39,909 nt of DNA from a virus (taxonomy: Duplodnaviria > Heunggongvirae > Uroviricota > Caudoviricetes): IMG/VR virus record IMGVR_UViG_2706794690_000014. One strand, 5' to 3'. How positions within the stretch are numbered: position 1 is the first letter of the stretch; the number at the start of each line of letters is the position of its first letter. Below the pieces are notes generated by a model that was not told the DNA's origin, did not search any database, and worked only from the letters and a program-made list of their open reading frames with translations. Both the position numbers and the translations under genes were made by a program. Below are positions 935 to 39,909 of this stretch, piece after piece.

Positions 935-1480
935 TTAACCCGCTTTTGGTTCTACCGCGTTAGATTTGCGACTTCTCTCAGTTTCTTCCAAAATCTCTCT
1001 GACGCGTTCGTCAGACATACCTTCAAGCTGTAATGCAGCTATTCTTTTCCTTCCTTCTAAGCGGATTAGATCTTGATTTTCAGGCTCTAACAACCGAGCT
1101 AAGTACTTGGCTCCATTCAGAACCAAATTTTTCGATAGCTGCTCTAAGTCTTTTTCATCAAGTGCGCTGATAATCGTCATAATTATCTTCTTGCTTTCAT
1201 CTTGATTTTCCTTGATCTCACACCGATTCACTTGTGATGCATCACTGAATCCACATAGCCACTCAACACTTACTCCTTCGATAGACGCAATCTGAAGGGC
1301 GACACTTAAGGATGGCTCAGTGCCACGAGACAGATAATTGTTTAGTGTTGAAAATGAAAGCCCCCAATCTCTTGCTGCAGCTCTGACGCTGCGGGAGCCA
1401 ATCAGCCTTTTCAGACGCTCAGCAATGCTTTCTTTTCTACCACCAGGAAAAGAAAGAGATGTTGTTGTTTGCTTGTTCAT
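935..1480 (-). CDS. Phage repressor (c-like), HTH DNA-binding protein
   Basis: 181-aa minus-strand ORF divergent from ner and the transposase operon; N-terminal region reads as a helix-turn-helix. Position matches the Mu c repressor. Confidence 0.6.
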   Translation of the reverse strand: MNKQTTTSLSFPGGRKESIAERLKRLIGSRSVRAAARDWGLSFSTLNNYLSRGTEPSLSVALQIASIEGVSVEWLCGFSDASQVNRCEIKENQDESKKIIMTIISALDEKDLEQLSKNLVLNGAKYLARLLEPENQDLIRLEGRKRIAALQLEGMSDERVREILEETERSRKSNAVEPKAG

Positions 1481-10260: not shown

Positions 10261-10683
10261 ATGGCTGAAACACAGATGAGCATGTTTGGTGACAGCGAAC
10301 AGCTGCACGCGCTGATTGACCGTCTGGATGATATTCCTGATGATGAGCTGAAAAAGAACTGGCCCGGCACGCTGCGGGACCTGGTTGATGTGATCAGTGC
10401 TGAACTGCACCGTCAGGGGATTGAACCTGCTCAGGCGGGAATGCTTGCCCGTAAGGTTGCAGCCGCACAGGCCGGGTACATGGGCGGGCGTGGTTATTAT
10501 CTCCCGGTCGGTGAATCCCTTTTCACCGAACTGCGCAATAATGAAATTTTTTCCCGCTGGAGCCAGGGCGAAAAAATTGAAACCCTGCGCCGCCACTACC
10601 AGATGTCAGAGACGCAGATTTACTCCGTTATCCGCAACCAGCGTCGCCTGCATCAGGAACGCACGCAGCCACGGCTTTTCTGA
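10261..10683 (+). CDS. Mor/C-family late transcription activator
   Basis: 140 aa with a C-terminal HTH (MSETQIYSVIRNQRR); sits between gemA and the lysis genes as Mor/C do in Mu. Cannot tell Mor from C. Confidence 0.7.
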   Translation: MAETQMSMFGDSEQLHALIDRLDDIPDDELKKNWPGTLRDLVDVISAELHRQGIEPAQAGMLARKVAAAQAGYMGGRGYYLPVGESLFTELRNNEIFSRWSQGEKIETLRRHYQMSETQIYSVIRNQRRLHQERTQPRLF

Positions 10684-10754
10684 TATTCCGCAAATCCTGC
10701 CCCCTTTTCCTCACGGTTACGCTGACTCAGAGAACACCATGAGACAGCGTAACA

Positions 10755-18144: not shown

Positions 18145-18145
18145 C

Positions 18146-18225
18146 GGTCAGTGGCGGGGGTCGAACCCGCATACATGATCCACCCGGAGGCAGGCACCGA
18201 CTTTACCAGTTAAGCGTACACTGAC
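18146..18225 (-). ncRNA. tRNA-like element (possible degenerate tRNA)
   Basis: On the minus strand: 7-bp acceptor stem, U8, D-loop-like TAACTGGTAA, and a perfect T-arm (GCGGG-TTCGACC-CCCGC). No convincing anticodon stem could be folded by eye. Confidence 0.25.
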
Positions 18226-18265
18226 CGCCTGTTTATTTTATATTCATCCTTTATGCGGAGGCAAT

Positions 18266-18739: not shown

Positions 18740-18916
18740 TGGTTTAAGGTATGCAAACGTATTACCTTACCCCCTTCAGGCGCGTGTCGTGATTTTCTAA
18801 CCTGTATTTAACGGGCTTTAAAATCTGCGTGAAGCGCCTTTCTCATTCCCCCCCTGTCAGCACTTTCTGAAGTCCCGCAAAACCAGCCCCAAAAATACCC
18901 GGCTTATGCTGCCGGT

Positions 18917-25152: not shown

Positions 25153-27249
25153 ATGGCAAAAAACCTGAAAGCCTCCCTGATTGTCGATTTACTCGGCAAT
25201 ATTTCTGCCAAATCCCGCCAGTGGTCACAGGAGCTGGGGGCATTCTCCCGTTCCGGCAGGACGGGGCTGGGTGGTCTTGGAAATGCAGCACGTCGTGCCG
25301 GTCAGGAGACAGAACTTGTCGGCTCCCGTATGCAGCGAACGCTTGCCGGTGTTCGTGGCAGTATCCGCACGGTGACGTCAGATTTTGACCGCCTTCAGGG
25401 CAGCATTNNNNNNNNNNNNNNNNNNNNNNNNNNNNNNNNNNNNNNNNNNNNNNNNNNNNNNNNNNNNNNNNNNNNNNNNNNNNNNNNNNNNNNNNNNNNN
25501 NNNNNNNNNNNNNNNNNNNNNNNNNNNNNNNNNNNNNNNNNNNNNNNNNNNNNNNNNNNNNNNNNNNNNNNNNNNNNNNNNNNNNNNNNNNNNNNNNNNN
25601 NNNNNNNNNNNNNNNNNNNNNNNNNNNNNNNNNNNNNNNNNNNNNNNNNNNNNNNNNNNNNNNNNNNNNNNNNNNNNNNNNNNNNNNGCGGGTTCGGTAT
25701 GAGTGACAGGGAAGCCCGTCGCTTTATTACCATGCTTCAGGATCAGGGCGGCTATCACGGCTGGTCACTGTCAGATGCACAGGGTGCGTCCCTGCAACTC
25801 AAACAGATGTTTGCCCGCCAGAGTATCCAGGCAGCGGACGCCAATATTCTGACCGGATACGGGATTAACGTTTACCAGTTGCTGGCCGATAAGCTGGGTG
25901 TAAACCAGAAGATCATCCGTGAGAAAGGCGAGAAAGGAAAACTGGGACCGGACAGCATTCGCCTGTTATTTCAGGTGATGGCCGAACAGGCAAAAGGTGC
26001 CCAGAAAAACGCCATGAATTCCTGGACGGGAATGACGTCCATGATGGGCGATGTCTGGGACGGATTTGCCCGCGAGGTGATGGCAAAGGGACCGTTTGAC
26101 AGCCTGAAAAAGAGCCTGAAAGGCTTTCTGGATTATGCTGATGCGGCACAGAAAAGCGGCTTACAGGATAAGCTGGCCACACAGACGGCCTCAGCCCTGA
26201 ATCAGGGATTTGAGTATGCCAGAGACGCTGCGACCGGCTTTTACCGGGTCATTCAGAAAGTCAGGGAAACGCTTCAGGCACTGCGCGACGCCGGTTATGG
26301 CGATGCGCTGGATCGCATTGGTCAGGGTGCGCAGACCGCCGCAAAGTACCTGATGTATATGTATCTCGCCTCCCGTGCGCTGAAGGTGCTCAGGTTTGCG
26401 GGGACGGGGGCATTACGTCTCGGCGCAACCCCCTTACGCTATGGCATGGCGATGACCTCCGTGCTGACGTCGCCCTTCCGCAAACCGCAGACCACTGTAC
26501 CGGGAACGCAGCCCGGACGCGCTGGCCGGTTCCTGAATTTCCTTACCGGGGTAAATCCGGCTGCCGTTCAGCCCGTGCTGGTCACCAATTGGCCTGCGGG
26601 TGGCCTGGCCTCAGGTGGCGGGGATGTGGTGGTCAGCGGTGACGGCAAAACCGTGCGCGGCCGTAAAAAACGCGGCCCCGGACGTGGACGGGGTGTCACG
26701 ACCGTCGTGACTGCCGGTGAGCAACTGGCGGAGAGTGCCGGTAAACAGGGCTTCTTCGGTCGTATGATGAGCCGTGCCGGTGGTCTGCTAACGGCGGCCG
26801 GAAACCGCATGGGGCTGGGGCGTTTTGCCGGGCTGTTCCGTGGTGCCGGTCGGCTGGGTGGTGGTGCCCTGTGGGCCGGTGCCATGGCGGCTCCTGTACT
26901 GCTGGACAGCAGCGCCAGTGCAGCCGATAAAGCCGGTGCCGTGGGTTCCCTTGCCGGAAGTATCGCCGGTGGCGCGCTGGGGGCGGCTGCCGGTCCGGTC
27001 GGGGTTGCCATTGGTTCCACGGTGGGCAGCTATCTCGGTGATTATCTGGGGGGCTGGCTGACGCAGGCCTGGCAGAAACTGCGTGGCGGCAGTGACGAAA
27101 ACGGCGGACAGGCCACCGCGAAAACCGCCGCACGGGTGGAGCTTGTTGCCCCTGAAGGCTGGCGGGCGCGCAGTATTGATGTGGATGATACCGCACAGCA
27201 TGGCCTGGATGTGAACGTCTGGAACGGAGGGAACTATGGCCTCTACTGA
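25153..27249 (+). CDS. Tail tape measure protein (interrupted by an assembly gap)
   Basis: 698-codon ORF after the chaperone; Gly/Ala-rich C-terminal region. Contains 280 N at 25408-25687. Confidence 0.75.
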   Translation: MAKNLKASLIVDLLGNISAKSRQWSQELGAFSRSGRTGLGGLGNAARRAGQETELVGSRMQRTLAGVRGSIRTVTSDFDRLQGSIXXXXXXXXXXXXXXXXXXXXXXXXXXXXXXXXXXXXXXXXXXXXXXXXXXXXXXXXXXXXXXXXXXXXXXXXXXXXXXXXXXXXXXXXXXXXXXGFGMSDREARRFITMLQDQGGYHGWSLSDAQGASLQLKQMFARQSIQAADANILTGYGINVYQLLADKLGVNQKIIREKGEKGKLGPDSIRLLFQVMAEQAKGAQKNAMNSWTGMTSMMGDVWDGFAREVMAKGPFDSLKKSLKGFLDYADAAQKSGLQDKLATQTASALNQGFEYARDAATGFYRVIQKVRETLQALRDAGYGDALDRIGQGAQTAAKYLMYMYLASRALKVLRFAGTGALRLGATPLRYGMAMTSVLTSPFRKPQTTVPGTQPGRAGRFLNFLTGVNPAAVQPVLVTNWPAGGLASGGGDVVVSGDGKTVRGRKKRGPGRGRGVTTVVTAGEQLAESAGKQGFFGRMMSRAGGLLTAAGNRMGLGRFAGLFRGAGRLGGGALWAGAMAAPVLLDSSASAADKAGAVGSLAGSIAGGALGAAAGPVGVAIGSTVGSYLGDYLGGWLTQAWQKLRGGSDENGGQATAKTAARVELVAPEGWRARSIDVDDTAQHGLDVNVWNGGNYGLY
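25408..25687. other. Assembly gap (280 N)
   Basis: Uninterrupted run of n characters. Confidence 0.99.
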
Positions 27250-34293: not shown

Positions 34294-34866
34294 ATGCTGA
34301 TTGGGTATATCAGGGTGTCAACAAATGACCAGAATACGGCGCTACAAAGAAATGCGCTGGAATGTGCAGGATGTGAGCTGTTTTTCGAAGACAGAATAAG
34401 CGGTAAGACAAGGGAGCGTCCCGGACTTAAACGCGCATTAAAGCGACTCCGGCCAGGGGATACCCTGCTGGTCTGGAAACTGGATCGCCTTGGACGCAGT
34501 ATGCAGCACCTTGTCCTTTTAACAGAAGAACTCCGGCAACGCGGCGTTAACTTCCGCAGCATTACGGACAATATTGATACATCCACTCCCATGGGACGTT
34601 TCTTTTTCCATATAATGGGCGCGCTGGCGGAAATGGAGCGGGAACTCATTATTGAACGTACACGCGCGGGTCTTGCTGCTGCCCGTGCTCAGGGGCGTCA
34701 TGGCGGCAGACCTCAGAAACTGACAGAGAAAGAGCGGGAGCAAATCGCCCGTTTGCTGGCTAATGGCGAGTCCCGTAAACAAATCGCACTGATATTTGAT
34801 ATTGGCCTTTCCACCCTTTATCGTTATTTTCCTGCCTCACCAGCTCCGTCACCAAAAGTACCGTGA
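34294..34866 (+). CDS. gin: Serine DNA invertase (Gin/Hin/Pin family)
   Basis: N-terminal catalytic region MLIGYIRVSTNDQ and C-terminal HTH (GESRKQIALIFDIGLSTLYRYF), both typical of serine invertases. Confidence 0.9.
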   Translation: MLIGYIRVSTNDQNTALQRNALECAGCELFFEDRISGKTRERPGLKRALKRLRPGDTLLVWKLDRLGRSMQHLVLLTEELRQRGVNFRSITDNIDTSTPMGRFFFHIMGALAEMERELIIERTRAGLAAARAQGRHGGRPQKLTEKEREQIARLLANGESRKQIALIFDIGLSTLYRYFPASPAPSPKVP

Positions 34867-34951: not shown

Positions 34952-37006
34952 ATGTCAGACTCCAAGTGGAAAATGCTCTCCGCCATGCCCGGAGAGTTTT
35001 CAGTCAAGGTTGCCGGTGGCACGGTGGCATTTATTGAAAGCCCTTTCCGCCCTTCGGGTAATAAAGGGGGGATCACCTTCGCAGACTGCGTGATCCGCTT
35101 CAGCACGAAAGAGCCATTATGGGTAATGCCGGTATCCGGTAATCCCAGTGCAGAAATCACCAGTTCAGGCGTGACTGGCATCATTCCAATCACATCTGAC
35201 GTGGCCGGAACGCTCACGCCCTCCGACTGGAATGCACCGGATAACGCCGGGCCTTCCGGTAGCACGAATGGCAGCAGTTCAGAGCCGGAATATTACTTTG
35301 TTGTCATTCTCGCGGGTCAGTCAAATGGCATGGCCTACGGCGAGGGGCTGCCGTTACCGGATTCGTTTGACCGCCCGGACCCACGCATTAAGCAACTGGC
35401 ACGCCGCAGTACGGTAACGCCCAACGGTACGTCGTGTACATACAACGACATCATTCCGGCAGACCACTGCCTGCATGATGTTCAGGATATGAGCGGGATA
35501 AACCACCCGAAAGCTGATCTGGCAAAAGGCCAGTACGGGACTGTCGGTCAGGGGTTGCATATTGCCAAAAAACTGCTTCCCTATATCCCACAGAATGCCG
35601 GGATACTTCTGGTGCCCTGTTGTCGTGGCGGGTCAGCATTCACCACTGGAGCCGACGGCTCATTCAGTGAGGCCAGCGGTGCTTCCGCTGATTCTTCACG
35701 CTGGGGGGCCGGTAAACCTCTGTATCAGGACCTGGTAAGCCGCACCAAAGTCGCGCTGGCGAAAAACCCGAAAAACAAACTTCTGGCTGTGGTCTGGATG
35801 CAGGGAGAGGCAGACCTTGCCTCAGGAAGCCAGCAGCATAATAGTTTATTCACGGCCATGGTTCAGCAGTTCAGAACTGACCTGGCTCCGCTTGCTGCGC
35901 AGTGCGTGAGTGGAAATGCCACCACGGTGCCGTGGATTTGCGGTGATACCACGTATTACTGGAAAAACGCTGGCACCGATAAATATGAGGCAGTATACGG
36001 TGGCTACAAAGGCAAGGAAGCACAGAAAATTTTCTTTGTACCGTTCCTGACGGATGAGAATGGACAGAGCACGCCAACGAATGCTCCGGCGGAAGACCCG
36101 GATATTGTGGCTGTCGGGTATTACGGTGCAGCATCCCGAACCCAGGGCAGTTTTGTTTCGACACAGCGTGACAGCCATTTCAGCTCATGGGCACGCAGGG
36201 GCGTCATTTCAGACCGTCTGGCCTCAGCTATTATGCTCCATGCAGGGCGCACGGCTGAACTGATGCGTGGGCAGACCGTGACACCACCGGATGAGAAGCC
36301 GTCACCTGATACACCATCAAAACCGTCCACGCCACCCGCAGACACCACGACGATGAGTACGCTATTTGCTTACCGGGCATCTGAGTCTGAAGGACGGTTG
36401 ACACCACAGGGTTGGGCTGCCGGAGGTGGCAAGGCTCAAATCGTGGATGATGCCGGAGCCAGCGGGGGTAAGGCAATGAAACTGACCAAGGAAACAGGAA
36501 GAGCCCCCTGGTACCTTGAGCATGATGCTGGTAATGGTGCGGACCTGCTGGGTAAAGGTGGTCTTGTCAGTTGTCGTTTTAAACTCGATGGCGCGCTTAC
36601 GGCTAATCAGTACGCACTGGCGCTGTACTGGCCGGTTTCTGCCCTGCCGCAAGGGGTTACTCTGGAAGGAAATGCCGGTCATAACCTGCTGGCATCGTTC
36701 TACGTACAGAGCGATGCCACAGACCTTAACGTGATGTATCACAAAGGAAACACGGCGCAGAACACGAAGCTGGGGTCATTCGGCGCATTTAATAACGAAT
36801 GGCATACGCTGGGCTTCCGTTTTGCCGGTAACAACAGTATTGAGGTGACGCCGGTCATTGATGGTAAGGACGGGACACCATTCATGCTGTCGCAGTCTCC
36901 GGTCGGCACGTTTACGGCAGACAAGTTGCGCGTGACCGATATCACTAAAAATGCGACTTACCCGGTACTGATTGACAGTATCGTGGTGGAAGTGAATAAC
37001 GCGTAA
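34952..37006 (+). CDS. nanS-p: SGNH/SASA-type esterase, prophage NanS-p-like (putative sialate O-acetylesterase)
   Basis: 684-aa ORF with the catalytic-serine motif ILAGQSNGMAYGEG; large C-terminal region typical of prophage esterases. Not a Mu core gene. Confidence 0.6.
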   Translation: MSDSKWKMLSAMPGEFSVKVAGGTVAFIESPFRPSGNKGGITFADCVIRFSTKEPLWVMPVSGNPSAEITSSGVTGIIPITSDVAGTLTPSDWNAPDNAGPSGSTNGSSSEPEYYFVVILAGQSNGMAYGEGLPLPDSFDRPDPRIKQLARRSTVTPNGTSCTYNDIIPADHCLHDVQDMSGINHPKADLAKGQYGTVGQGLHIAKKLLPYIPQNAGILLVPCCRGGSAFTTGADGSFSEASGASADSSRWGAGKPLYQDLVSRTKVALAKNPKNKLLAVVWMQGEADLASGSQQHNSLFTAMVQQFRTDLAPLAAQCVSGNATTVPWICGDTTYYWKNAGTDKYEAVYGGYKGKEAQKIFFVPFLTDENGQSTPTNAPAEDPDIVAVGYYGAASRTQGSFVSTQRDSHFSSWARRGVISDRLASAIMLHAGRTAELMRGQTVTPPDEKPSPDTPSKPSTPPADTTTMSTLFAYRASESEGRLTPQGWAAGGGKAQIVDDAGASGGKAMKLTKETGRAPWYLEHDAGNGADLLGKGGLVSCRFKLDGALTANQYALALYWPVSALPQGVTLEGNAGHNLLASFYVQSDATDLNVMYHKGNTAQNTKLGSFGAFNNEWHTLGFRFAGNNSIEVTPVIDGKDGTPFMLSQSPVGTFTADKLRVTDITKNATYPVLIDSIVVEVNNA

Positions 37007-37021
37007 GCAGGATAAAAAAAT

Positions 37022-37055
37022 GCCGCCGGTAAGGGAAAACAAGAAACCGGCGGCA
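37022..37055 (-). terminator. Terminator-like hairpin, U-tract on the minus-strand side
   Basis: 10-bp stem tgccgccggt/accggcggca with a 15-nt loop; A7 upstream and A5 downstream on the plus strand, so the T-run follows the stem only when read on the minus strand. Confidence 0.4.
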
Positions 37056-37150
37056 AAAAGATCGTTATATCCAAAGCAAAAAATGCAGTGCACCTTTTTA
37101 CCTAACAGATATTACCGGTGTCAACACCATGTCAATAATTGGGAGGGATA

Positions 37151-37333
37151 ATGACATTTTTACAGCTTATTTTATTGTATTTCTGCACGGCAGTATGTGC
37201 GTTATATCTGGTGAGTGGTGGTTATAAGGCCATCAGAAATTATGTTCGCCGCAAAATTGAGGACGCAGCAGCTGAAAAACTCAGTAAAACAGCGCAGGTA
37301 ACTCCGCTCCCAAAAGACCCGACCCAGCCCTGA
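37151..37333 (+). CDS. Small membrane protein (60 aa, single N-terminal TM)
   Basis: GGGAGGG RBS then ATG at 37151; hydrophobic N-terminus (FLQLILLYFCTAVCALYLV) and basic cytoplasmic tail. Confidence 0.45.
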   Translation: MTFLQLILLYFCTAVCALYLVSGGYKAIRNYVRRKIEDAAAEKLSKTAQVTPLPKDPTQP

Positions 37334-37348
37334 TTGCAGGGCTTTATT
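37326..37348 (+). terminator. Terminator-like hairpin
   Basis: agccctg-attg-cagggct followed by ttatt; overlaps the stop of the small membrane protein gene. Confidence 0.4.
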
Positions 37349-37368
37349 CCCGCATAAGGAGGATATAC

Positions 37369-37623
37369 ATGCCAGAAATTAAAGGCACCGTCACTGAAGA
37401 CCTGGTAAAACAGGCACTGTATTCCGGTGAAGTAAATAAGTTGCTGAAAGCGCAGGTCCGCAAGGATTTTGAGGCACAAATCGACACTTACGTTGATGAA
37501 GTGCTGGCAAAACTTATTGGGCCAGCAGTTGCGGCCAGTGATGCTGATAATGAGCCGAAAACCGACGCGCAGCCAGAGCAACCAGACCCGGCTCAGCCCG
37601 GAACTGACAGTACCATGATGTAA
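37369..37623 (+). CDS. Small acidic hypothetical protein (84 aa)
   Basis: Strong RBS TAAGGAGG 7 nt upstream of the ATG; helical N-terminal half, acidic Pro-rich C-terminus. Confidence 0.5.
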   Translation: MPEIKGTVTEDLVKQALYSGEVNKLLKAQVRKDFEAQIDTYVDEVLAKLIGPAVAASDADNEPKTDAQPEQPDPAQPGTDSTMM

Positions 37624-37790
37624 CAATACAAACCGGTGGTGTCCTCTGCCGGTTTGACACTAATGAAAACATCTTTGCCGCTATCCAGCCATATGTAATC
37701 GCTGGATAGTATTTCGTATTCAGAAATATAGCTGCTTATGGAGCAGTCAATCCTGCTTCCCCATCCGGGCAGGCAAATGAACCGGTATCA

Positions 37791-38084
37791 TTAGTCCGAT
37801 TCACGCTTTTGTAGAATCGTTCCCAGAATGCTATACAGCTCATTAGCCTGTTGCTCCATCATTGAGACGGAGGCTATACGGTGCAAAGTGATTTCAGGAG
37901 GTGGCACACCTCCATCTTCTTGCTGTGGAGGAAAAACATAAGATTTAATAAAAAAGTTGAAGCATATGAACTCTCCCGCACTCGAACTGTATTTGCAGGC
38001 ATCTGAATAATCGGAAAAATAATCATTATAGATTTCCGCATTTTCAATCATTTTTCGATTTCTCGTCGTTACATGATTGTCCAT
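37791..38084 (-). CDS. Hypothetical protein, minus strand, in AT-rich cargo DNA
   Basis: 97-aa ORF divergent from com/mom, with a ~210-bp AT-rich upstream region. Confidence 0.4.
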   Translation of the reverse strand: MDNHVTTRNRKMIENAEIYNDYFSDYSDACKYSSSAGEFICFNFFIKSYVFPPQQEDGGVPPPEITLHRIASVSMMEQQANELYSILGTILQKRESD

Positions 38085-38204: not shown

Positions 38205-38297
38205 AGTGATCAAACTCATAAATTTTCGCTAATGACATTTCGTGTTATTTGTTGTATCAATTAAATAAATCAAATCGATCGTTTTTGTCGATCGATT
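38205..38297. promoter_or_regulatory. GATC-cluster regulatory region upstream of com/mom
   Basis: Three GATC sites (38208-38211, 38277-38280, 38290-38293); the last two lie in a 9-bp inverted repeat aatcgatcg/cgatcgatt. Mu mom is known to be regulated through three Dam sites. Confidence 0.5.
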
Positions 38298-38340
38298 GAG
38301 TGATAAAGATATCAACAACAAAGCAGGAGGTTATGCGGCC

Positions 38341-38541
38341 ATGTATCGAAACATACGGTGCCGACATTGTAACAAGCTACTGGCACGAGCCAGCTTCAGT
38401 TATCTGGAAGTTAAATGTCCGCGCTGTAAAACCCTCAATCAAATCACATCTCAGAGCGCCACAGAGCACCCCACATACACAAGGAAATCCTGTCGTGGGG
38501 AACAGAAAGCAAGTTACATCCCGTATCATCAGCACGCCTGA
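38341..38541 (+). CDS. com: Com-like zinc-finger translational activator
   Basis: [10 protein letters not shown]...VKCPRCK matches the Com zinc-finger pattern; AGGAGG RBS 10 nt upstream; overlaps the mom frame. Confidence 0.7.
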
Positions 38542-39232
38542 ACTTATTCACTATAACGACAATATCGTCGGTTATGGCTCCCGTGAGTTACGGGTTGAGA
38601 CAATAAGTTGCTGGCTGGCCCGGCTGGTCGTCGTCAATAAACATTACAGCCATCGTTTCGTAAATAATTCCTACCTTCATCTGGGCATATTTTCAGAACG
38701 GGAGCTGGTTGGCGTAATGCAATGGGGTTATGCCCTTAATCCAAACAATGGTGCACGCGTCGTAACTGGCACGCAGAACCGCGAATATATGGAGCTTAAC
38801 CGGTTATGGCTGCATGACTGTATGCCGAGAAACTCCGAATCAAGGGCAATCAGTTACGCGCTCAAACTAATCAGACAACTTTATCCGCAGGTGCAGTGGG
38901 TTCAGTCGTTTGCAGATGAGCGTTGTGGCTGTCTTGGTGTCGTGTACCAGGCAAGCAATTTTGATTATGTAGGCAGTCATGAAACAACATTCTATGAACT
39001 TGATGGCGAGTGGTATCACGAGATTTGCAAGAATGCAATCAAACGAGGAGGACAGCGAGGTGAACATCTGCGGGCTAATATCGACAGAGCCAGTGTTCAT
39101 AAATTCCGTCAGTTTCGTTACATCCGGTTTCTGGACAAGAGAGCCAGAAAACGCCTTAACACAAAGCTATTCAAAGTCCAGCCTTACCCAAAACCACAAA
39201 CAGTTAAAACTGGTTTGAAAGAGAGTGAATGA
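38495..39232 (+). CDS. mom: Mom-like DNA modification protein (start uncertain; frame is open from 38300)
   Basis: Last gene before the right end, overlapping com; C-terminal half has motifs ([33 protein letters not shown]) that fit my recollection of Mom. GTG 38495 chosen for a short overlap with com. Confidence 0.55.
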
Positions 39233-39277
39233 ACGCTTAAAAACTCATTCTAAAACTCAAAAGAAAAGCGCCGATTT

Positions 39278-39346
39278 AGTATCAAATAAGTTGCGTATCG
39301 GCGTTTTTCAGCGGTATCAAATGAAATGCAAATCGGTATCAAAAAA
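39278..39346. repeat. Right-end cluster of putative transposase-binding repeats (attR)
   Basis: Three inverted copies of the left-end motif: agtatcaaataag (39278-39290), cggtatcaaatga (39312-39324), cggtatcaaaaaa (39334-39346). Confidence 0.6.
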
Positions 39347-39390
39347 ATCGCCGCGCTATAGACAGCCTAAGCGGCTGCTGACCTCCCTGA

Positions 39391-39909
39391 CCATGCTGTA
39401 AATCTCTTTATCCTGGTTGTCACAGAATAAGCCCGGTAAAATACGGGCTTATGAACGACATCTCTTCTGACGACATCTTCCTGCTGAAACAGCGCCTTGC
39501 CGAACGTCAGTTGAAAACGAAACCGCTGCTGAAATCCCTGGAAAGCTGGCTGCGTGAAAAGATGAAAACCCTGTCGCGACACTCAGAACTGGCGAAAGCG
39601 TTCGCATATGCCCTGAACCAGTGGCCGGCGCTGACGTACTATGCAGATGATGGCTGGGCTGAGGCGGACAATAACATCGCTGAAAATGCGTTGCGGATGG
39701 TCAGTCTGGGCCGCAAAAACTACCTGTTCTTCGGTTCGGATCATGGAGGAGAGCGGGGAGCGCTGCTGTACAGCCTGATCGGGACGTGCAAACTGAACGG
39801 AGTGGAGCCAGAAAGCTACCTCCGCTATGTCCTTGACGTCATAGCCGACTGGCCGATAAACCGGGTCGGCGAACTGCTCCCCTGGCGCGTAGCACTGCCG
39901 ACTGAATAA
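39391..39909 (+). pseudogene. tnpC: IS66-family transposase TnpC (orf3), 3' fragment only
   Basis: Frame opens just after the phage right end and encodes ~170 aa of transposase C-terminus; the N-terminal ~350 codons expected after tnpB are absent. Confidence 0.65.

Follow-up and report, generated by a model that had tools for sequence, protein, structure and literature searches.

The anti-restriction operon com-mom of a Mu-like Escherichia coli prophage and its predicted methylation-sensitive OxyR site on the promoter

The closest described counterpart of the locus reported here is the com-mom operon of phage Mu, whose weak promoter has a 19-bp spacer, a T6 run, and a TAAGAT −10 hexamer approximately 21 nt before com. 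The limits of the OxyR footprint in Mu used below rest in part on positions that were computed from the −58 to +20 oligonucleotide given in PMC4461284. Mu Mom is toxic and a late function (PMC3378877). Its chemistry has been described (PMC13219725), and the residues needed for its activity are H48, Y49, R101, S114, D139, and Y149 (PMC7261163, PMC13219725; R101 and S114 correspond to R111 and S124 when the 241-aa numbering is used). Work on Mu also led to a model of mom translation that involves a Com-binding hairpin and an inhibitory hairpin, in which the target of Com is CC(N)2-3GAG in a 6-nt hairpin loop with a C-G closing pair (PMC6483171). Two further systems are relevant to the region upstream of com. 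The agn43 (flu) gene of E. coli K-12 encodes a host outer-membrane protein and shows proven heritable ON/OFF phase variation; to our knowledge, no heritable phase variation of that sort has been described for mom. In the O-antigen glucosylation (gtr) operon of phage P22, GATC pairs 13 bp apart, at −110/−97 and −46/−33, mark Dam-sensitive OxyR half-sites, and OxyR acts as a repressor at the promoter-proximal pair, which overlaps the −35 region (PMC2909390).

The DNA analysed here, referred to as the window, is a stretch of 39,909 nucleotides (IMG/VR record IMGVR_UViG_2706794690_000014). It carries a Mu-like gene set consisting of a repressor, ner, transposase A/B, Gam, GemA, a Mor/C-family protein, lys, Mu-like head and tail genes, and an invertase, and its right end is an ordinary com-mom anti-restriction operon of a Mu-like transposable E. 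coli prophage (Table 1). The original prediction, made from the letters of the sequence, had proposed a Com-like zinc finger overlapping a Mom-like ORF. Both genes were found, overlapping by 47 nt in different frames. Com, which includes the sequence CPRCK, matched Pfam Zn_ribbon_Com (PF10122, E=7.5e-13) and PHROG 13819/6417, 'gpCom control of modification', and RefSeq places com at the same coordinates in identical prophages. The profile search also revealed homology of the second ORF to Mom, with the entire 202-position profile of PF25680 covered (E=1.6e-77); this protein further matched PDB 8bv8 (E=2.4e-123) and PHROG 1384. It is 78% identical to Mu Mom, from which it differs by a 12-residue C-terminal extension, and all six residues listed above fall in invariant columns of the alignment of the two proteins. 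The enzymatic role of Mom is thus shown by homology: the protein would transfer glycine from Gly-tRNA(Gly) to the N6 of adenine in double-stranded DNA, and the resulting carbamoylmethyl-adenine would shield the phage DNA from restriction. No NCBIfam model matched Com or Mom, the only Rfam match was a sub-threshold, irrelevant one to IS102 (E=0.79), and ARAGORN found no tRNA at the place where a relative carries a 'tRNA-OTHER' annotation.

The identity of the module is further backed by the RNA control elements described below and by its setting. As in Mu-type phages, no further operon stands between com-mom and the right end of the transposable phage, and gene order and the com/mom overlap are the same as in Mu, D108, and SfMu. 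The 9-mer of the right-end repeats, GGTATCAAA, has inverted copies at the left end (706, 801, and 853), and we presume that these repeats are transposase-binding sites. Matches to other E. coli genomes end at 39360–39367, the flanking genes differ from genome to genome, and the insertion site is different in each. Only one of 200 shuffled sequences folded as well as the terminator that follows mom. On the other side, the invertase gene gin and com are separated by approximately 3 kb of extra genes, compared with 95 bp in Mu; these encode a DUF6645/SASA esterase-domain protein, DUF1378, DUF826, and, next to com, a divergent 97-codon ORF that points away from com-mom. Among 5426 complete E. coli genomes, 233 carry the module, and com-mom operons of this kind are already known and annotated in hundreds of genomes.

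Table 1. Features of the com-mom region, in window coordinates
Feature	Position	Strand	Basis
Distal GATC	38208..38211	.	69 bp upstream of GATC2
Upstream sigma-70 promoter candidate: −35 ATGACA (38232-37), 17-bp spacer, −10 TATCAA (38255-60)	38232..38260	+	sequence
OxyR-like dyad 1, ATTTGTTGTATCAAT	38247..38261	.	match to ATAGnTnnnAnCTAT, no GATC
Inverted repeat AATCGATCG-N7-CGATCGATT with GATC2 (38277) and GATC3 (38290)	38273..38297	.	sequence, alignment to Mu
Hypervariable spacer with weak −10 candidates TGaTAAAGAT (38301-38310) and TATCAA (38310-15)	38298..38314	+	downstream promoter placement
com Shine-Dalgarno AGGAGG	38325..38330	+	read from sequence
com, 66 aa, CCCC zinc ribbon, proposed translational activator of mom	38341..38541	+	PF10122, ATG to TGA
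Predicted Com target hairpin in mRNA, stem GCGC/GCAC, 6-nt loop	38456..38469	+	motif and covariation
Predicted translation-inhibition hairpin, CCCCAC (38469-74)/GUGGGG (38495-500)	38469..38500	+	minimum-free-energy fold
mom, 245 aa, by homology a tRNA(Gly)-dependent adenine N6 aminoacyltransferase, GNAT fold	38495..39232	+	PF25680, GTG start
Intrinsic terminator after mom, AAAAGCGCCGAU...AUCGGCGUUUUU	39263..39309	+	fold −23.2 kcal/mol, z = −3.4
Prophage right end with three GGTATCAAA-type repeats (39278, 39313, 39335)	39278..39360	+	repeat comparison

The start codon of mom had been called unclear, a doubt that the comparison with relatives does not bear out. As judged from the alignments, the start is GTG 38495, which is homologous to the GUG of Mu and is the homologous start codon in all GUGGG-type relatives; the RefSeq annotation of identical prophages also places the start there. 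Two other candidates, a 310-codon ORF in the mom frame from 38300 and a start at ATG 38333, were rejected because in O157-type relatives a stop closes this frame 27 codons before the GTG, because ATG 38333 lies just 2 nt past the Shine-Dalgarno sequence, and because the GTG is the homologue of the Mu start. The mom start codon can therefore be set at this GTG.

The RNA elements of the com-mom overlap are also those of Mu. The window and Mu share the Com zinc ribbon, a CC-N3-GAG hairpin, and an inhibitory hairpin whose loop holds the Shine-Dalgarno sequence and whose stem holds the GUG. The Shine-Dalgarno sequence of com itself, 10 nt ahead of the ATG, is kept in Mu and in all members of the window's clade. 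The Com recognition motif CC-ACA-GAG (CCACAGAG) occupies 38459–38466 within GCGC-CACAGA-GCAC. Among 11 homologues, all four stem pairs of this hairpin exhibited changes on both sides and 93% of the cells were paired; in the window's clade, the stem contains one C.A mismatch. The stem of the inhibitory hairpin was 100% paired in the 11 homologues, and its basal pair covaries, being C-G in six, U-A in four, and U.G in one. In the predicted fold, the mom Shine-Dalgarno sequence AAGGA (38481–38485) and the GUG start would be shut inside the hairpin CCCCAC...GUGGGG until Com, made from the same mRNA, binds the adjacent CC-ACA-GAG hairpin and the inhibitory hairpin opens. Since Com would be needed for this opening, Mom would be made only once Com accumulates. 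The proposed translational control of mom by Com is well supported by these comparisons, and the com/mom RNA switch of Mu appears conserved, with compensatory changes, across the Mu-like phages of Enterobacterales.

Three GATC sites, two of them inside a perfect 9-bp inverted repeat, had been reported roughly 50 to 130 bp before com. They are indeed at 38208, 38277, and 38290 (−133, −64, and −51 from the com ATG), and no other GATC occurs between 37060 and 39739. The arms of the repeat, 38273–38281 and 38289–38297, are perfectly paired over 9 bp around 7 nt and extend no further. The palindrome core (38278–38292) reads ATCG-N7-CGAT, which we call dyad 2 and which has the signature of a Dam-sensitive OxyR half-site, making it a candidate site. 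In both the window and Mu, 13 bp separate GATC2 from GATC3 within AAATCGATCG..GATCGATT; the dyad is a perfect palindrome in the window, unlike that of Mu. The window contains 122 GATC sites (one per 327 bp) and only two triples within ≤86 bp in 39.9 kb; the probability of at least three sites per 140-bp stretch is approximately 0.01 (Poisson), 0.7 site is expected in the 241-bp intergenic region at its local composition of 33% GC, and 38277/38290 is the sole pair in the window with an exact spacing of 13 bp. The strongest argument against chance is conservation rather than counting. Among 14 distinct sequences of the prophage clade, the palindrome varies in one of 25 columns, and the 17 bp directly 3' of it correspond to 23 alignment columns, 16 of which vary. 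In addition, the 13-bp GATC pair with a partner dyad 31 bp upstream recurs in nine of 15 com lineages. The distal GATC, which the window and CI5 types share, is missing from the O157-type variant, which has other GATC sites at −186/−175. Its position fits neither Mu GATC1, which lies 18 bp upstream of GATC2, nor the 31-bp class. It probably lies outside the conserved control site, and one extra GATC is within chance.

The partner dyad of the palindrome (dyad 1) matches ATAGnTnnnAnCTAT at seven of ten positions, lies 31 bp upstream of dyad 2, and varies in none of its 15 columns in the clade. In these comparisons, the consensus of a dimer site was ATAG-N7-CTAT, and ATCG-N7-CGAT was taken as its variant. 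Each dyad by itself is not distinctive, because the window contains 65 single dyads that match seven of the ten consensus positions. The bipartite score of the pair is 14, which is the same as in Mu and is reached by only one other locus in the window. Mu likewise has a second OxyR-like dyad, ATAGAAAACGACGAT (L001 1148), 31 bp upstream. With seven spacings allowed, each independent lineage whose GATC pair is intact had its best second dyad at 31–32 bp; the exception was L036, a lineage with a 1-bp deletion, at 30 bp. The canonical 22-bp spacing of OxyR dyads gave a lower score than the 31-bp spacing in the window, Mu, and agn43, and was discarded. We infer from these comparisons that the two invariant dyads, at 38247–38261 and 38278–38292, form a predicted OxyR tetramer site. 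Full Dam methylation of the GATC sites in dyad 2 is expected to block OxyR binding; on unmethylated or hemimethylated DNA, OxyR would bind and the promoter would be shut. The proposed parallel to the Dam/OxyR-controlled mom region of Mu consequently holds for GATC2 and GATC3, which align to Mu with the same flanking motifs and spacing and form an agn43-like dyad. It fails for the set of three: the OxyR site of Mu has three GATC sites, spaced by 18 and 13 bp, and the window has no such triple, there being no GATC 18–19 bp or 31 bp upstream of GATC2 and the distal site being unconserved and 69 bp away.

The short distance between the GATC sites and com is real and meaningful, and it sets the window apart from Mu in layout. 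GATC3 is 51 bp from the com ATG in the window and 78 bp in Mu, and the 26 bp missing from the window are those with the C-activator site TTATGCCCCAATAA (of the form TTAT-N6-ATAA), the T6 spacer, and the TAAGAT −10 hexamer. Without these 26 bp, the architecture of the window is not that of Mu. A scan with the sigma-70 consensus found no acceptable promoter on the + strand, and two weak candidates can be considered. One would place the −10 element past the palindrome, near 38304–38315, where TAAAGAT (38304–38310) and TTGTCG-19 bp-TATCAA can be read. Close relatives differ strongly along this stretch, with a 6-bp CAACAA indel among the changes. For a functional −10 element, such a position in the most variable part of the region would be odd. 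Good −10 hexamers occur at this offset from GATC3 in relatives that belong to the same short class, namely TATACT (L050 and L051), TATAGT (L052), and TGaTAGATT (L007). The other candidate, ATGACA-17-TATCAA, with a predicted transcription start near 38267, escaped the scan because the conserved T at the end of the hexamer is missing from its −10. In the 14 clade sequences, neither hexamer varies, and the spacer has five variable positions and a constant length; this candidate is not conserved in L050–L052 or L007. Because the stretch between the OxyR-like site and com offers neither the room nor the sequence for an activator site, the OxyR-like site is predicted to sit on the core promoter or transcript start. 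Compared with Mu, the unusual feature would be a methylation-sensitive control site on the promoter and not upstream of an activator site.

Three other accounts of the upstream region were weighed against this one. Control may still be as in Mu, the promoter being silent without a Mor/C-family late activator and OxyR and Dam merely modulating it; we regard this as a possible, though less probable, arrangement. The activator could act through an unrecognised site, perhaps the GATC palindrome itself, which is dyad-symmetric like the C and Mor sites of Mu. The window has a single Mor/C-family gene (two in Mu), which directly precedes lys (10261–10683; PF08765, E=6.7e-31; 40% identical to Mu C). 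The lack of a good sigma-70 promoter fits activator dependence, as do the toxicity and late expression of Mom in Mu (PMC3378877), and in Mu itself the late promoters of lys, I, and P have C sites that differ from the one at mom (PMC4461284). The late promoters of the window nevertheless argue against this account. A late box, TYCCGCAAAWCCWGCC-N16-TAYGCT, occurs without mismatch before lys and before the head-protease gene I (10686 and 18873) and is kept there in relatives; it was not found upstream of com, where the best match has 7/16 mismatches, a background level. The palindrome, moreover, is unlike the late box and closely resembles known OxyR sites. A CCCCCTT 'C box' common to the upstream regions of lys and I had been considered before this late box replaced it, and was dropped as unconserved in relatives.

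The palindrome might also be a relic or chance occurrence with no regulatory role, com-mom then being silent or expressed by read-through. The unconserved distal GATC, the presence of about seven perfect 9-bp inverted repeats with short loops in the window, and the degenerate, hypervariable predicted −10 region fit this view. We nevertheless consider it very improbable: amid variable flanks, there is next to no variation in the palindrome or in the dyad 31 bp upstream, the pair and its partner recur across lineages as described above, and com, mom, and the RNA elements are all intact. Read-through is also unavailable, because the gene upstream is divergent. Equally improbable is a role of the palindrome as a hairpin, either a leftward terminator or a 5' stem-loop stabilising a com mRNA that begins near 38267. 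A scan flagged a terminator-like structure on the − strand (9-bp stem, 7-nt loop, and T-rich tail), and the 5' hairpin would fold if the upstream promoter were used. A terminator was rejected, since nothing is transcribed leftward into the palindrome, com-mom and the divergent 97-codon ORF both pointing away from it, and since Mu-type relatives keep the GATC sites and their spacing with arms that are not complementary (ATCGGTAATACAGAT). It follows from these relatives that the conserved feature is the GATC pair on double-stranded DNA and not a hairpin. The putative leader folds no better than shuffled sequences (z = −0.98).

Taken as a whole, the locus is probably best explained as a com-mom operon with three levels, namely the enzyme, its translational control, and its transcriptional control. 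A more far-reaching reading is that the short class (the window's clade, L050–L052, and L007), having lost the activator site and carrying an agn43-like predicted OxyR site on the promoter, possesses a heritable ON/OFF switch for mom. We think this unlikely; if it were true, mom would be set by methylation and not by the lytic cascade, and a subset of the lysogens would produce Mom, with carbamoylmethyl-adenine in the host DNA. If transcription were independent of an activator, the expression of a toxic DNA-modifying enzyme by a resident prophage would hinge on methylation state and Com alone. The com-mom class without a C site is common in O157:H7 and other E. coli and is a point for specialists. 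The 13-bp GATC pair with a partner dyad 31 bp upstream may also serve as a signature for annotating Dam/OxyR control sites.

The predicted overlap of the OxyR-like site with the promoter makes the window resemble agn43 and the OxyR(BC) site of gtr. The agn43 core with GATC-II and GATC-III, ATCGATCGTTTATATCGATCGATAAG, is nearly the same as that of the window, ATCGATCGTTTTTGTCGATCGATTGA; both have two GATC sites 13 bp apart in ATCG-N7-CGAT and a partner dyad 31–32 bp upstream, and each of the sites, that of the window by prediction, overlaps the promoter or early transcript instead of lying upstream of an activator site. The consensus score is 16 for agn43 and 14 for the window, and agn43 has a third GATC in its partner dyad ATAGAATAAAACGAT (spacings of 19 and 13 bp), which the window does not. 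Like com-mom of the window, the gtr operon is phage-borne, and under the downstream-promoter model the GATC pair of the window would lie at about −40 and −27, against −46 and −33 for the promoter-proximal pair of gtr. The gtr operon has three half-sites, OxyR(A/B/C), and two GATC pairs that give OxyR alternative activating and repressing positions; unlike gtr, the window has a single GATC pair, and the one partner dyad contains no GATC.

The com-mom module of the window is genuine but ordinary, being widespread and previously annotated. The region was found in 233 of 5426 complete E. coli genomes, with at least 99% identity in 17 of the 233; most of the others are O157:H7 and other Shiga-toxin-producing strains (90-95% identity), in which Com and Mom are the RefSeq labels. 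It lies in a complete Mu-like transposable prophage of E. coli (about 702-39360), which carries inverted GGTATCAAA repeats at both element ends and follows the gene order of Mu. In contrast to Mu, which has 95 bp between the invertase gene and com, about 3 kb of accessory genes (34952-38084) separate the two here. Near-identical prophages occupy a different chromosomal site in every genome, in keeping with a phage that transposes.

Features of the prophage and of its com-mom region
Feature	Position	Strand	Remark
Repressor	935-1480	-	
ner, transposase A, transposase B, Gam, GemA			in Mu order, after the repressor
Mor/C-family activator	10261-10683		between GemA and lys
Lysozyme gene, then Mu-type head and tail genes			downstream of the Mor/C-family activator
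Gin-like invertase	34294-34866		
DUF6645 protein with sialate O-acetylesterase (SASA) domain	34952-37006		684 aa; accessory block after the invertase
DUF1378, DUF826			accessory block between the SASA protein and the divergent ORF
Divergent 97-codon ORF	37791-38084		no family match; last accessory gene before com
GATC sites	38208, 38277, 38290		sole GATCs within 2.7 kb
Perfect inverted repeat AATCGATCG-N7-CGATCGATT	38273-38297		holds 38277 and 38290
com	38341-38541		Pfam Zn_ribbon_Com, E=7.5e-13
Mom-like frame	end 39232		Pfam Mom, E=1.6e-77

IS66-family sequence flanks the prophage on both sides (1-701 and 39361-39909). The left flank holds IS66 tnpA and tnpB and the right flank only the last 152 codons of the transposase. 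As parts of a single IS copy the two look non-contiguous, and roughly 1 kb of transposase coding sequence is apparently missing, suggesting either a deletion next to the prophage or an insertion that joined two IS copies. Within the tape-measure ORF (25153-27249), bases 25408-25676 are N, either masked or unsequenced. The RefSeq record of a relative lists a "tRNA-OTHER" between the genes for the minor head protein and for virion morphogenesis, and ARAGORN found no tRNA in the matching window stretch (18145-18265).

The original prediction named both genes correctly, as the Pfam matches in the table indicate. The window Mom shares 78% identity with Mu Mom, matches the solved structure of Mom (8bv8, E=2.4e-123), and in the alignment to Mu Mom keeps all of H48, Y49, R101, S114, D139, and Y149, the residues needed for Mom activity (PMC7261163; PMC13219725 numbers R101 and S114 as R111 and S124). 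Mu Mom places glycine from Gly-tRNA(Gly) onto adenine N6 in double-stranded DNA, and the product subsequently rearranges to carbamoylmethyl-adenine (PMC13219725); the enzymatic role predicted for the window Mom is shown by this homology. The mom start had seemed unclear because the mom frame is open upstream to 38300, as it indeed is, but comparison with Mu, RefSeq, and relatives gives GTG 38495. The accepted start in Mu is the GUG within the stem of the translation-inhibition hairpin (PMC6483171). This hairpin reads CCCAC-ggagaaacatt-GTGGG in Mu and CCCCAC-N20-GTGGGG, with AAGGA in the loop, in the window. GTG 38495 is the RefSeq start in identical prophages and, judged by alignment, is the mom start homologous to the GUG of Mu. 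In O157-type relatives a stop closes the mom frame 27 codons upstream of the GTG, and the long mom ORF is therefore not conserved. A start at ATG 38333, in the mom frame, was rejected on account of this closure and of its position only 2 nt downstream of the com Shine-Dalgarno sequence. The window and strain CI5 both have a mom frame without stops throughout com, open for 65 and 122 codons upstream of the GTG, respectively. Since relatives close the frame, its openness across com (38300-38494) is probably due to chance; translation from it would bypass Com control.

Sequence and covariation strongly support a model in which Com opens the hairpin that conceals the ribosome-binding site and GUG of mom. 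Eleven distinct homologues were aligned (Mu, a Mu-like variant, the window, Edwardsiella- and Scandinavium-labelled prophages, and six IMG/VR viral contigs), and base pairs were counted for a structure that we specified. The inhibitory stem was paired in 11 of 11 sequences, and all four pairs of a small hairpin on its 5' side showed changes on both sides, with stem variants such as AUGC/GCAU, GCAC/GUGC, and GUGC/GCAU. Overall, 97% of the cells were paired, compared with 23-62% when the 3' partners were shifted by 1-3 columns. The loop of the small hairpin is C-N3-GA in all homologues; adding the C-G pair that closes it yields CC(N)3GAG, the type of Com recognition motif obtained by SELEX and footprinting (PMC6483171); in the window it reads CCACAGAG (38459-38466). 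The window clade, 14 distinct sequences of the same prophage type, has one C.A mismatch in the small-hairpin stem. Position 38469 (alignment column 21), just 5' of CCCAC and between the Com and inhibitory hairpins, shows covariation with the base that closes the Com hairpin (G-C in 6, A-U in 4, and G-U in 1) as well as with the base following GUGGG (C-G in 6, U-A in 4, and U-G in 1). Mutually exclusive pairing at this junction may be part of the Com switch; given the small number and the relatedness of the sequences, we treat this as a lead only.

Other loci showed different arrangements. In two loci with a short GATC-to-com distance, L050 and L051, the com leader (about -45 to -10 relative to the com ATG) holds a CTGCCACCT able to pair with the Shine-Dalgarno sequence of com, AGGAGGCAG, further downstream, which suggests an extra layer of com translational control that the window lacks. 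Beside many Mom homologues at 67-70% identity, com is absent (locus L074; also L014-L017, L020, and L071-L104). In L074 (2200-4062), mom lies within a lambdoid late region, preceded by a 230-aa ORF at the Q antiterminator position (placed by position alone) and a strong terminator AACCCGCCCGCGCGCGGGTTTTTT, and followed by ORFs at the holin and lysozyme positions; this mom is presumably controlled by antitermination, not Com.

The GATC positions and the perfect inverted repeat are seen in the sequence as originally described. Counting alone lends the sites modest significance: the chance of at least three GATCs per 140 bp is about 0.01, only two such clusters occur within the window, and the exact 13-bp GATC pair is unique there. 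The window aligns with Mu across AAATCGATCG-N8-GATCGATT, and GATC2 (38277) and GATC3 (38290) are therefore those of Mu, with identical 13-bp spacing. The proposed likeness to the three sites of Mu holds for this pair but not for 38208, which lies 69 bp away, is absent from the O157-type variant, and has no Mu counterpart. Among 35 distinct sequences upstream of com, collected from public genomes and from viral contigs, the 13-bp pair followed by (G/A)AT(T/A) was present in 9 of 15 Com lineages, and the lineages with the pair are enterobacterial Mu-like phages by contig labels or similarity. The Mu type has a third GATC 18-19 bp further upstream, and three loci of short GATC-to-com distance (L007, L051, and L052) have one at 31 bp; the window clade has none at either distance.

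The 13-bp spacing is the outcome of the OxyR dimer site ATAG-N7-CTAT written (G)ATCG-N7-CGAT(C). In the P22 gtr operon, such a pair occurs in each Dam-sensitive OxyR half-site, at -110/-97 and -46/-33 (PMC2909390). When the bipartite consensus was scored across the window, the dyads at 38247 and 38278, 31 bp apart, reached 14, a value attained at only one other window locus. The Mu site (ATAGAAAACGACGAT and ATCGGTAATACAGAT, also 31 bp apart) has the same score, and agn43 of K-12, whose regulatory region ATCGATCGTTTATATCGATCGATAAG compares with ATCGATCGTTTTTGTCGATCGATTGA in the window, scores 16 at 32 bp. The Mu assignment spans about -100 to -55 from the transcription start, with which the published Mu OxyR footprint reportedly agrees. 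The Mu start was derived from a -58..+20 oligonucleotide (PMC4461284). With seven spacings allowed, the best partner dyad lay 31 or 32 bp upstream in each independent lineage with an intact GATC pair, and at 30 bp in L036, a window-clade variant with a 1-bp deletion. Within the clade, variation affected 0 of 15 columns in the upstream dyad, 1 of 25 in the palindrome, and 16 of 23 in 38298-38314. This last stretch, between the palindrome and the com Shine-Dalgarno sequence, is hypervariable in near-identical prophages, including a 6-bp CAACAA indel, and coincides exactly with the expected -10 position. Four com-mom loci of marine gammaproteobacteria (L011, L012, L013, and L069) have no GATC pair and have in common a palindromic motif CACAGTG-N8-CACTGTGAACC...CCAAGGCTC, about 60-110 bp upstream of com, which may be a site for a different regulator. 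In the Symbiopectobacterium-type L054, GATC3 is at -15 from the com ATG with everything between lost, probably a promoter-deletion variant.

The short GATC-to-com distance of the original prediction is real: GATC3 lies 51 bp from the com ATG, compared with 78 bp in Mu, where the 26 bp lacking here make up the C-activator site TTATGCCCCAATAA, a T6 spacer, and the -10 TAAGAT. The distance is 52-54 bp in L050, L051, L052, and L007 and 71-93 bp at Mu-type loci; as judged from these loci, it is a class feature, not an accident. The late-promoter box of the phage, defined by comparing lys upstream regions across relatives as TYCCGCAAAWCCWGCC-N16-TAYGCT, occurs exactly upstream of lys (10686-10723) and of the head-protease gene (18873-18908), with four matches of at most three mismatches against 0.44 expected. 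The box, distinct from the Mu C site (ATAACCCC-type), is probably where the single Mor/C-family activator binds. Only one gene of this family was found, compared with two in Mu (Mor and C), and the phage may run a two-step, not three-step, transcription cascade. Upstream of com, the best plus-strand match to the late box has 7/16 mismatches, which is background level; neither this box nor the Mu C site is recognisable at com-mom. Given this result and the 26-bp gap, the promoter would have to be overlapped by the OxyR-like site.

The promoter may be placed in either of two ways. With a -10 downstream of the palindrome, the two GATCs would fall near -40 and -27, resembling the gtr OxyR(C) half-site; at 11-13 bp beyond GATC3, class relatives carry TATACT, TATAGT, or TGaTAGATT, and the window only TGaTAAAGAT or TATCAA. 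The other possibility is the upstream ATGACA-17 bp-TATCAA (38232-38260), in which the clade shows variation in the spacer and none in either hexamer; the OxyR site would then cover about -20 to +26, an arrangement resembling agn43. A standard consensus scan accepted neither candidate.

We propose that OxyR would bind both dyads unless GATC2 and GATC3 are fully methylated, blocking the promoter, and that Dam methylation would lift this block. As far as sequence comparison indicates, the regulatory layout of com-mom in this prophage is closer to those of agn43 and gtr than to the activator-dependent promoter of Mu.
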